Made by a program: the position numbers. Positions 21,001 through 24,000 of a stretch of 64,000 nt of DNA are shown one piece after another. Where the stretch lies: NCBI GenBank assembly GCA_049964835.1, contig JBMFWW010000002.1:1-64000 (forward strand). The letters are read 5' to 3'. Source of the stretch: Candidatus Micrarchaeia archaeon (GTDB lineage: Archaea > Micrarchaeota > Micrarchaeia > Micrarchaeales > CABMGC01). Position 1 is the first letter of the stretch. Each line of letters begins with the position of its first letter.

Positions 21001-24000
21001 GAAACCTAATTTTTTATAATCATATTTTTCTTGCATTTTGTATCAACCACTTATGATATGGTAGTCCTTTCTGTGATTTCCCCAACTAAGTTTTTAGCTA
21101 AAAGTTTTTCTGCATCTTTTTTGCTATAGTTTCCAAGTAAGAAACCTAATTTAACGTATGCAGTTTCAGCTAGCATATCTTCACAGTATATAGCTCCTGC
21201 CTCTTGTATTAATCTCCCATTTCTGTATACATTTCCGTTAACCCTACCATTTATGCATTGTGATGTCATACCTATTATCATTCCTGAAGAGACACCATCT
21301 TTTATTGCCTTTGTCCAGTTATACTCATTATGACTTGTAGAAACTGGGGCATGTCCCAATCCTGTACCTTGTAATATTAAACCTTTATAATTTTTTTTAC
21401 TATAATACTCTATAACTCCAGGGTCTGAGTTAGGATAACTTATTACCATAGCTATCTTACTTTCGTATCCTGTTTTTGCAACTACCTTTTCTTTATGGGC
21501 TTTAAATTCATTTTTATAATACTCTTCAACGTTGCCTTCATAATAAGCACGTGCAAGTATTCCTGTATTTATTGACTTAAACGCGTCTCTGCTTGAGGTA
21601 TGCATCTTTCTTGCCTTGCTTCCTAATATGAAATCGCAGTATTTATCAGAAGAGTTGCTATGCATGCATATGCCAACTTTGTTTATGTTGGTTTTTGAAG
21701 CTATTCGTGCAGAGCATATGAGATTCATGAATGCGTCGCTAGAACCTCTATCACTGCTTCGCTGTGCGCCAGTTAGTACAACTGGACTATTAAGATTTTG
21801 AAGCATGAAGCTTAGCGCTGCAGAAGTGTAGTGCATAGTGTCTGTACCGTGAGTTATGACTACCCCCTTAGCTCCTTCGTTTAATGCATCCGCAACATGT
21901 TTTGCCATAAGCTGCCATTCTTTATATGACATATCCTCGCTAGCTACGCTCATTAACTGTTCAACATTTATGTTTGCTATGTCACTAAGCTCTGGAACTT
22001 CATAAAGTAGCTCTTCAGGCTTAGTAAGCATGTAAACGCCTCCAGTAACATAATCGACTTTGCTACCTATAGTCCCACCAGTATATAGCAGAGTAATCTT
22101 TTCTAAATCTTTATTATTTTTAGATGTAGCTTTAGGAAAAGTAAAATTTTCTTGCGTTTTTGACTCTTTTTTATTTACTTCAATATCTTTTGAATATTTT
22201 ATACCTATATTATATCCATTATCAAGCTTAATTATAATTATACTGTCATCTCCAGTGTCCGGTCTTGGCATAAGTATTCCATTTAATTCATTGTTATTAT
22301 TCTTAATATGCAAAAGGTCTCCTACCTTTAGTTTCTTGTTTTTAAACAATGCTTCTAATTCCTCAGAATACATAAGTACTATTACTCCTTTCGTATTTAA
22401 ATTACTTTTGTGATACTTTAGTTACATTCTAATATACGTTGTAGTAGACTTGAATTTACACTATGTAGTGTTGATTTTATCTTGATTTTGATTAAATGCA
22501 AAATAAACGTATACGTATATTAATCTTAATAATAGAATAATATTGCAGCAGAAAGGCGGGAAGCTAGGGGTTTCCCATCCGCAAATCCCCTTTAGGCGGG
22601 CCGTATGCCGAGCAAGTGATAATAAACTCTGTTTGACCTACGTTAAAGCGTTGAAGTCATGCCTTCAGTGGTGGTCTTATATATAAACCGGGCCAGGCCG
22701 GAAGGAGCAACCCTAAGTATATGGCAATGCAGTGTAACTGCGCTGTATAAGCGTACAAAGGGCTATGCTCTGAAGATACAGGGCCGAGTAGAGACGTAGA
22801 TAATCTTACATAGTTTATTATTGCAGATCGGTTTCTGCTGCATTATCTAATTACTTATAATTCTCCAAAACATAAGGTTATATATCTGAAATGATAATTT
22901 ATAAGCATGACCTCTAAAAAATCATCTCTCAGAGTAGATTCTGAACAAAAATTAAGTAGCCAGCTACTTCCTAAAAGTTTTTATGATGAACACAAAAATA
23001 AAACCAATGAAGAATTAAATTTATCAATAAAGGCAATAGCAAGAATTTTCAAAAAAGACGATAAAGAAATAATTGCAGCTGTGACTTCTTTGCCGCAGTT
23101 CATCAACAGAAATCATTTAAAAATAATAACCTCTGTAGCTGAAATATACTCGTGTAAAGAAGAAGAAGCAAAAAAAATTATACTTTCACATCCACAATTT
23201 TCTGGTTACTATCATATTAATAAAGTGGAAAAAATTCAAAAATTATACGGAATTGATAAAAATGTATTAAGGAAAATTATTTTATCACTTCCACAATTTA
23301 TTGGTTATGATCATGAATCTGCACTTGCCAATATCTCTGAAATATATAATTTAAATCTTGAAGATGCAAAACGCTTAGTTTTGAAAAATCCGCAATTCTT
23401 AAAGAGAGATCACAAAAAGATTATAAAAAATATAACTGACGTTTATTCCTGTACAGATGAAGAAGCCAAAAAGGCAATTAAAAAATTTCCTCAGTTCGCA
23501 GGTTATAATCATGCAAAGAAAATACGAAGAATTAGTAGAGTAGCACGTTTAATAGGCATAGATGAAAAAGTTGTCAAAGAATTCATAATAAAAAATCCAG
23601 TACTCGCTAGTTATTCTGAAAAAAGGCATATTGCAGCATTAGATAGTTTAAATTTATTTAAACCAATTAAGACAAAGGATTTTGATCCTATAACGATAAT
23701 TAAAAGGTATTCATATCACATATCTAAGTCACCTTATGTTCCTAATACCAAACTTAGAGTGTCAAAGGCAAAGAAGAAGGGCCACGACATAGAACTAACT
23801 CCTTTTTTAAAAGAAATAAGAAAAATAACTGATTAATAATCCATTATCTTTAAATATGGTTGTGTGTAAATATTACATTGTGCCGGGGTCGCCTAGTGGT
23901 ACAAAATATTGTTGCAATTTATTTGCACTAAATGGCGGCAGCCTGCTAAGCTGTTCGGCTAGTAATGGCCCCTGCGAGTTCGATTCTCGCCCCCGGCGTT

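Follow-up and report, generated by a model that had tools for sequence, protein, structure and literature searches.

The window, that is, the whole 64,000-nucleotide stretch of DNA analysed here, carries the SRP (7S) RNA gene of a Micrarchaeota (DPANN) archaeon in the intergenic gap between the gene of GatD and an mTERF-like open reading frame (Table 1). With cmscan, the segment 22544-22842 of the forward strand aligns to the whole Rfam model Archaea_SRP (RF01857, model positions 1-317 of 317) with a score of 53.8 bits, far under the gathering score of 96.5 bits; the E-value is 9.2e-11 for the stretch searched and 7.1e-12 genome-wide. The 299-nt RNA folds at −108.1 kcal/mol, which corresponds to a z-score of −3.61 and is equalled by none of 200 shuffled sequences. 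A first-pass annotation had placed an end-to-end but sub-threshold SRP RNA of 299 nt at the same coordinates, with the same folding energy (z −3.6), and our recomputed values reproduce it.

A score so far under the Rfam threshold might point to a decaying, non-functional copy or to an assembly artefact. We give this explanation practically no credence, as the segment is the sole RF01857 match reported for the genome (assembly of 805,809 bases, 94.4% complete) and is flanked by intact genes. Homologues were found in 34 of 41 relatives and in 126 of the 151 genomes of the order, the genomes compared being mostly MAGs. The gene is kept across the order, and compensatory changes are abundant: RNAalifold detected them at 56 of 79 predicted pairs in an alignment of 30 relatives. 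The SRP54-binding motif is likewise invariant in 30 relatives. The segment 22544-22842 is a real, single SRP RNA gene. Only 8 of the 151 genomes of the order pass the RF01857 cut-off.

Table 1. Features of the SRP RNA locus and of other genes in the window.
Feature	Position	Strand	Basis
GatD gene, one flank of the intergenic gap	21051-22373	-	
SRP (7S) RNA gene, 299-nt precursor form	22544-22842	+	RF01857 end to end; homologues; covariation
Helix 1, 5' strand (pairs with 22834-22842)	22544-22552	+	Model positions 1-9 with 309-317 (cmscan)
Alu (small) domain, helices 2-4, approximate limits	22553-22606	+	Model positions 10-64 (cmscan)
Stem between helices 5 and 8, 5' strand	22672-22684	+	Junction pairing
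Helix 8 apex, predicted SRP54-binding site	22686-22716	+	Motif invariant in 30 relatives
End of exon 1: left strand of the BHB central helix, GUAU (22717-22720), then first two nt of the 5' bulge	22717-22722	+	
Predicted bulge-helix-bulge (BHB) intron, 36 nt, 3' of helix 8	22723-22758	+	Anatomy common to 51/51 long forms
Exon 2, 3' strand of helix 5	22759-22833	+	cmscan alignment; covarying pairs (RNAalifold)
mTERF-like ORF, other flank of the gap	22907-23836	+	
tRNA-Ser(GCU) gene with D-loop insert	23882-23998	+	cmscan tRNA, 44.5 bits
FtsY (SRP receptor) gene	36837-38330	+	PF00448, 225 bits, at 37740-38318; ORF limits

Helix 1, the Alu helices 2-4 and the long helix 5 are present, as seen in the cmscan alignment and in the covariation of 30 sequences. 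Helix 1 consists of nine Watson-Crick pairs that can be read directly from the sequence, and helices 3 and 4 are recovered by RNAalifold. Helix 8 carries a GNRA-type tetraloop (GGAA, 22700-22703) and the loops that bind SRP54; its apex is made of an AACC loop, a GGG/CCC stem, a CAGG/AGCA symmetric loop and a distal stem of 2 bp. Since both whole-RNA MFE folding and RNAalifold mis-pair these non-canonical loops, we relied for helix 8 on the Rfam alignment, in which the helix-8 part of RF01857 aligns with the apex motif in relatives. One of its pairs covaries (19-42 of alignment A4: GC in 36 sequences, AU in 13). The stretch GGAAGGAGCA, attributed in the first-pass annotation to the SRP54-binding part of helix 8, indeed corresponds to the tetraloop and the 3' side of this helix.

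On the 5' side of helix 8, neither the RNA of the window nor its relatives show a helix 6 with its GNAR tetraloop. The 40-position branch that represents this arm in the model is filled by a single nucleotide in relative L001 and by none in relative L004, while helix 8 aligns in both. In the RNA of the window, helix 8 directly follows helix 5, and alignment to the short forms of the gene runs end to end with one gap block only. A Sulfolobales control showed a full helix 6 with a GGAG loop. Judging from these alignments, helix 6, the arm that binds SRP19, is deleted in the lineage. In a second DPANN phylum, 3 of 95 SRP RNAs, with lengths of 309-320 nt, have 35-37 nt at the helix-6 position and their genomes give no SRP19 match, so that helix 6 and detectable SRP19 may not be strictly coupled.

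SRP19 itself was searched for with two profiles. PF01922 gave no match at E ≤ 10 in the assembly. Among 401 Micrarchaeota genomes, of which 188 have a completeness of 90% or more, none had a match over the cut-off; the two weak matches seen in the phylum (E about 0.007-0.009) belong to reading frames of 1159 and 214 aa. A profile built from 150 diverse SRP19 sequences found nothing at E ≤ 0.01 in the same 401 genomes, and matched all three positive controls, which are non-DPANN archaea with a helix 6. When 7,909 six-frame stretches of the genome were scanned by hmmsearch with no filter, the best SRP19 E-value was 1.9, and the SRP19 signature motif is absent from the genome. SRP19 is present in three archaea with SRP RNAs of 306-325 nt, and none was found in two DPANN archaea with RNAs of 265 nt. 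In contrast to SRP19, the other protein partners are recognised: SRP54 is encoded on contig C12 (M domain PF02978, 97.6 bits), and PF00448 matches the genome at 225 and 209 bits, the higher score falling in the FtsY gene of the window. The first-pass annotation had described this same set, with SRP54 and FtsY present and SRP19 missing from the genome and from the other Micrarchaeota searched, and the larger survey bears it out.

From these searches, SRP19 appears to be truly absent rather than unrecognisable. That the profiles missed a highly diverged SRP19, or that an unrelated small protein has taken its place, is quite improbable, even if small proteins of fast-evolving DPANN lineages are easily overlooked and PF01922 misses our Sulfolobus acidocaldarius control (it does match a Sulfolobales MAG, at 63 bits). 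Two profiles in 401 genomes and the unfiltered search of this genome returned nothing, and the primary SRP19 binding site is gone. One candidate deserved closer attention: a conserved 124-aa protein of unknown family is encoded right after the S8e gene, the place that SRP19 occupies in one DHVE2 genome. Its hhalign probability against SRP19 is 0.4-0.5%, and we rejected it as a diverged SRP19, although an SRP19 fold is still conceivable. Its AlphaFold model (pLDDT 90) gave no Foldseek match at E ≤ 0.001, with no SRP19 chain among the matches listed; VIA-align wide likewise listed no SRP19 chain, its matches being generic ferredoxin-/KH-like folds with a top Z of 8.1.

The lengths of the SRP RNA genes in the order are bimodal: 71 genes measure 258-267 nt and 52 at least 277 nt, with none in between. 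The 299-nt gene of the window owes its length to a 36-nt insert with the features of a BHB intron. The 5' bulge is AUG (22721-22723), the h' hairpin starts at 22724, and the right strand of the central helix, GUAC (22753-22756), is followed by the 3' bulge AAA (22757-22759). As a loose BHB pattern matches 34 times within this gene alone, such a motif means little in a single sequence, and only the comparison across genomes carries weight. All 51 long forms (277-321 nt) show the same arrangement, with a 4-bp helix, a 3-nt bulge and an inner stem of at least 2 bp, then on the 3' side the four complementary nucleotides and three more. Among 49 distinct sequences, the central helix and the closing pairs of h' are 100% paired, and five of these six pairs, including three of the four in the central helix (GUAU/GUAC here), show changes on both sides. 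Nothing else is conserved in the insert apart from the two 3-nt stretches. When it is removed, 22672-22684 pairs with 22717-22722 and 22759-22765, all ten junction pairs being standard; this mature-type pairing, mutually exclusive with that of the precursor, also covaries (92.2% paired in the 49 sequences).

The motif departs from a strict BHB. On the 5' side, all 51 long forms have a true 3-nt bulge, while the three nucleotides on the 3' side are located at a three-way junction, between the central helix and helix 5, and not in a closed bulge. Of the flanking helices, h' is present (both closing pairs, 100% paired), and the exon ends do not pair into an outer helix h; for this reason we assign the motif to the relaxed HBh' form as defined in PMC6379350. 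The insert also accounts for much of the very low score. Within the same genus, intron-less genes reach 74.6-99.9 bits with RF01857 and insert-bearing ones 53.8-67.1 bits. The proposal that the RNA has been remodelled is upheld for helix 6, but the 53.8 bits reflect in large part the 36-nt insert and not remodelling. A small intron of archaeal type seems to interrupt the gene, and we predict that this intron is excised in vivo.

The genome encodes enzymes that could process such an intron. The splicing endonuclease, a protein of 384 aa with domains PF01974 and PF02778, aligns with PDB 4fz2 along its entire length (E 3e-140); we take this structure to be the ARMAN-2 enzyme, the tool giving it only the title 'tRNA intron endonuclease'. 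By its sequence, the endonuclease is of the epsilon2 type, with broad specificity. The ligase RtcB is encoded as well (550 bits). Relaxed specificity is reported for epsilon2 endonucleases in PMC6379350, and on this report rests the predicted cleavage at the 3' bulge located at the three-way junction.

The insert might alternatively be a lineage-specific expansion hairpin that is never spliced and stays in the mature RNA, forming a three-way junction beside helix 8, where it might take the place of helix 6 or, together with the proximal stem of helix 8, form a conformational switch. We consider this unlikely, though it has to be taken seriously: excision is a prediction from sequence, the motif has no outer helix as a strict BHB would, and constrained folds of either pairing are similar in energy, the mature-type one being the more stable in 37 of 51 long forms. 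A retained arm would however hardly be expected to be so free in its interior, which varies in sequence and in length (predicted introns of 14-59 nt) around a helix, two 3-nt stretches and closing pairs that are kept, nor to be present in some members of a genus and absent from others. Its removal restores the length of intron-less genes, with predicted mature RNAs of 259-267 nt against 260-266 nt, and in two genomes (G032 and G146) the predicted spliced junction is identical to that of the intron-less genome G029. A relocated helix 6 was rejected on similar grounds, since the loops are unconserved, the length is variable and the GNAR loop that helix 6 would need is lacking. The covariation of two exclusive pairings led us to examine a switch arm too. 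It is retained here only as a variant of the unspliced hairpin, the intron reading being simpler: one pairing would serve the precursor and the other the mature RNA, so that both covary, whereas a retained hairpin does not account for the covariation of the competing mature pairing.

We therefore favour, with a probability of roughly 0.7, a helix-6-less, SRP19-free SRP RNA gene with a predicted BHB intron. The gene measures 299 nt because a predicted 36-nt intron of the relaxed HBh' type sits in the stem joining helix 8 and helix 5. Cleavage by the epsilon2-type endonuclease would fall between the second and third nucleotides of each 3-nt bulge, and the two exons would be ligated by RtcB, giving the junction GUAUAU|AGGG. 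The predicted mature RNA of 263 nt would comprise helix 1, the Alu helices 2-4, the long helix 5 and helix 8. Because it lacks helix 6, the particle would be formed by SRP54 and RNA without SRP19, and would dock to FtsY; SRP54 would then bind the RNA unaided. The S domain is like that of the Bacillus-type bacterial SRP, on an otherwise archaeal scaffold. The SRP19-free archaeal SRP put forward in the first-pass annotation thus finds support in the deletion of helix 6 and in the 0 of 401 genomes with an SRP19 match.

Compared with the canonical archaeal SRP (RF01857; for example Methanocaldococcus jannaschii and Sulfolobus solfataricus), the RNA of the window has the same helix 1, Alu helices 2-4 and long helix 5, the same helix 8 with its GGAA tetraloop and CAGG/AGCA loop, and the same partners SRP54 and FtsY. 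The canonical particle has in addition helix 6 and SRP19, the former missing and the latter undetected here; the distal stem of helix 8 is shortened from 3 bp to 2, and the RNA lacks the UGUNR motif. The large SRP RNA of the Bacillus type (RF01854) shares the plan of Alu domain, helix 5 and helix 8 without helix 6 or SRP19, but the sequence here fits the archaeal model better (36.6 bits and E 1.9e-4 with RF01854, under its gathering score of 60), and SRP54 and the genome context are archaeal. A position between the archaeal and the bacterial type, as suggested earlier, is apt: the RNA has an archaeal helix 1 and Alu domain, and helix 8 is the only helix of its S domain.

The predicted intron can be set beside two known systems. 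The circularly permuted SRP RNA of Thermoproteus, described in PMC4731332, undergoes processing at a BHB motif, and its precursor is likewise predicted to be recognised by the tRNA-splicing endonuclease and ligase of archaea; that gene is permuted and its RNA circularised, whereas the gene here is colinear with a short internal intron. The non-canonical BHB introns of tRNA genes in ARMAN/Micrarchaeota, which go with an epsilon2 endonuclease (PMC3239211, PMC3488258, PMC6379350), have the same 4-bp helix between 3-nt bulges in a relaxed HBh' form. The genome studied here has an endonuclease closely matching PDB 4fz2, and the tRNA-Ser gene near the SRP RNA gene has an insert of this kind in its D-loop. 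The host RNA of the predicted intron is the SRP RNA, in contrast to the tRNA, rRNA or mRNA of known BHB introns.

A 2010 review (PMC2905702) states that every archaeal subgroup has SRP19 and that the protein occurs together with helix 6. We lean, somewhat less firmly than for the locus itself, towards a natural two-component archaeal SRP in Micrarchaeota and in at least one further DPANN phylum, together with an SRP RNA gene split by a BHB intron in about 4 of 10 genomes of the order. If true, this would contradict the textbook view that SRP19 and helix 6 occur in every archaeon, and a phylum devoid of both would be a natural experiment on the purpose of SRP19. It would be consistent with the dispensability of SRP19 in Haloferax, as cited in PMC6098224. 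Leaving aside the mentions of SRP19 in PMC7203096, our literature search turned up neither a report that DPANN archaea have lost SRP19 or helix 6 nor one of an intron in an SRP RNA. The intron would be the first described for an SRP RNA gene. As a new substrate class, it would extend the range of the archaeal splicing endonuclease past tRNA, rRNA and a few mRNAs; it would also connect SRP RNA with BHB processing for a second time, independently of the permuted gene of Thermoproteus. The SRP RNA genes of the order go unannotated because the helix-6 deletion and the intron push their scores below the Rfam threshold, and a lineage-specific SRP RNA model is needed for their annotation.

A further insert, which serves as a control within the genome for the predicted intron, lies 1.1 kb downstream of the SRP RNA gene, in the D-loop of the tRNA-Ser(GCU) gene, which cmscan finds, with an insert of 32 nt in its alignment, although ARAGORN reported no tRNA between 22000 and 25000. 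Taken as 31 nt (23901-23931), this insert fits the same BHB rule, with a central helix AGUG/CACU, bulges GUA and AAA, and an h' of 4 bp.

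The locus is a real SRP RNA gene. cmscan aligns it end to end with the archaeal SRP model of Rfam (RF01857). The score, 53.8 bits, falls short of the 96.5-bit gathering score, and the bacterial large-SRP model (RF01854) reaches only 36.6 bits. None of 200 shuffled sequences was as stable as its fold (−108.1 kcal/mol, z −3.61). The gene sits in an AT-rich gap between GatD and an ORF of the mTERF family, which is better known from organelles. The first-pass annotation had described this full-length match far under threshold, as well as the presence of SRP54 and FtsY; both were found again, and each of its figures that we recomputed came out the same.

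Features of the SRP RNA locus and related genes in this genome
Feature	Location	Strand	Remarks
GatD	window 21051-22373	-	flanks SRP RNA gap
SRP RNA gene	window 22544-22842	+	RF01857 match over full model, positions 1-317
Predicted intron	window 22723-22758, 36 nt	+	BHB frame; predicted mature RNA 263 nt
mTERF-like ORF, 309 aa	window 22907-23836	+	Pfam mTERF, 47 bits; directly downstream of SRP RNA
tRNA-Ser(GCU) gene	window 23882-23998	+	cmscan 44.5 bits; 1.1 kb downstream of SRP RNA gene
FtsY	window 36837-38330	+	
SRP54	contig 12		
Conserved 124-aa Micrarchaeota protein	contig 1, locus L247:1880-2254	+	directly after S8e gene; no Pfam family

Of 41 relatives, 34 yielded an SRP RNA homologue, and these sequences fall into two size classes, of about 262 nt and 278-300 nt. 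The helix-8 motif was recognized in 28 of 30 loci by a strict pattern and in all 30 by alignment; wherever found, it begins roughly 146 nt into the RNA, immediately after the helix 5 5′ strand. Helix 6, the SRP19-binding arm, takes up 40 positions of the model; in the cmscan alignments of two relatives with short forms, L001 (99.9 bits) has 1 nt there and L004 (93.9 bits) has 0. Helix 8 aligns well in both, with a distal stem one base pair shorter. A Sulfolobales control treated by the same procedure shows a full helix 6 with its GGAG loop. RNAalifold on 30 sequences recovered helices 1, 3, 4 and 5, with both-sided changes in 56 of 79 pairs. The helix 8 distal stem of the Micrarchaeota RNAs has 2 bp where 3 are usual (window 22698-22705). 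Between helices 3 and 4 these RNAs do not retain the UGUNR motif; the window's RNA has CCCAU-CC in its place (22576-22581).

No match to the Pfam SRP19 family (PF01922) was obtained at E≤10 in this assembly, which is 94.4% complete. In a sample of 401 genomes from the phylum, of which 188 are 90% complete or better, none exceeded the cut-off. Two weak matches in the phylum (E about 0.007-0.009) fall within frames of 1159 and 214 aa. We then built a broader profile, seeded with the SRP19 genes of three helix-6-bearing archaea: a full HMMER search gave 1,651 representatives at E≤0.001, of which the best 150 were aligned. This profile matched 3 of 3 helix-6-bearing archaea, neither of two helix-6-less DPANN genomes and none of the 401 Micrarchaeota genomes at E≤0.01. 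Its best E was 1.9 in an unfiltered hmmsearch of the 7,909 six-frame stretches of at least 35 aa from this genome, where a small SRP19 profile gave 0.57 at best and the SRP19 loop motif was not found. Several sampled genomes are recorded with one contig each (such as G060 and G064 in the SRP19 sample, and G120, G127, G210 and G253 in the SRP RNA sample). The earlier reading of an archaeal SRP without SRP19 in this organism is supported by two profiles without a match over the cut-off in 401 genomes, and is much firmer because helix 6 is missing as well.

In one DHVE2 genome SRP19 adjoins the S8e gene. The 124-aa protein found beside S8e here has 52 relatives at E≤0.001 and a confident AlphaFold model (pLDDT 90). 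As a candidate SRP19 it was rejected: hhalign gave 0.4-0.5%, and no SRP19 likeness appeared among the fold-search matches listed. Its C-terminal ...SEEGLGSIFG tail is similar to those of ribosomal stalk proteins.

Through the helix-8 motif we also found two MAGs labelled Nanoarchaeota whose 265-nt SRP RNAs have 0-2 nt at the helix-6 branch. Neither has an SRP19 match, and none of 301 genomes of their phylum exceeded the PF01922 cut-off. In this second DPANN phylum an SRP RNA was detected in 95 of 101 genomes, mostly of 263-278 nt. Three loci (L242, L243 and L244, from G452, G425 and G497) encode RNAs of 309-320 nt. Their helix-8 loop is unusual (UUGAC or CUGAC), and the helix-6 position holds 35-37 nt, which may represent a helix 6, an intron or some other arm. 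The searchable literature yielded no report of helix 6 or SRP19 loss in DPANN, nor of an SRP RNA intron; a 2010 review gives the opposite rule, that SRP19 occurs in all archaeal subgroups and coexists with helix 6 (PMC2905702).

What is new relative to the first-pass annotation is a probable bulge-helix-bulge (BHB) intron in the SRP RNA gene, to which the comparison of long and short forms points. The window's RNA aligns end to end with the short forms, the sole gap block lying 3′ of helix 8, and the long forms differ in having 14-59 extra nucleotides inserted at this one fixed site. Both forms occur in this genus. Across the order, 71 genes measure 258-267 nt and 52 at least 277 nt, with none between and 4 shorter or partial. 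Two unpublished genomes, G038 and G214, are counted in this tally and that of the 41 relatives; neither underlies any sequence-based claim. We extracted 70 genes (29 relatives' loci without G038, the window's own and 40 of at least 277 nt). The insert is present in 51, all sharing one frame: directly after the helix-8 UAA comes GUAU, GCAU, GUGC, ACAU or GUAC, then a bulge of 3 nt, a stem in which the first two pairs are always formed and a variable hairpin; the complement of the first four nucleotides follows, then 3 nt, the first always A, and the helix 5 3′ strand. The shortest inserts have only GC, a 4-nt loop (GCAA, GAAA, GGAA or GAGA) and GC as stem. In an alignment of 49 distinct apex regions, the 4-bp helix and two closing pairs were paired in 100% of cells, with both-sided changes in 5 of the 6 pairs.

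The archaeal BHB motif is defined as a 4-bp helix between two 3-nt bulges (PMC6379350). The insert would correspond to its relaxed HBh' form, since the exon ends do not form an outer helix; the predicted 3′ cut site lies outside any closed bulge. Taken by itself, a loose BHB pattern is common, with 34 matches within the 299-nt gene. If both 3-nt stretches were cut behind their second base and the exons joined, the long forms would yield mature RNAs of 259-267 nt. Intron-less genes measure 260-266 nt (18 of 19 examined, the remaining one containing a run of N). The predicted junctions of G032 and G146 are identical, letter for letter, to that of the intron-less G029. In this genome, each of the 10 junction pairs is standard after predicted removal. 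In the mature form, the four central-helix nucleotides would have another partner, the 5′ side of the stem under helix 8, and this pairing covaries as well (92.2% paired). Both pairings would be kept because the precursor structure is needed for cutting and the mature one for function. The probable intron also accounts for the unusually low Rfam score of this gene. Of published cases in which an SRP RNA is processed at a BHB motif, the permuted gene of Thermoproteus comes closest (PMC4731332).

The genome encodes RtcB (550 bits) and a 384-aa splicing endonuclease with Pfam endonuclease domains. The latter matches PDB 4fz2, the three-unit epsilon2 endonuclease of ARMAN-2, over its full length (E 3e-140); this enzyme type is described in the literature. 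The tRNA-Ser(GCU) gene, not called by ARAGORN, carries a 31-nt insert (23901-23931) with the anatomy of the SRP RNA insert (BHB fit AGUG/CACU, bulges GUA and AAA), whose removal leaves a normal D-arm. This intron position is non-canonical, as the BHB-fitting insert sits in the D-loop. Among the relatives' SRP RNAs, a second copy (L220) lies on a tiny 528-nt contig of the MAG G241 and contains a run of N; it probably represents a variant of the strain or a remnant of binning.
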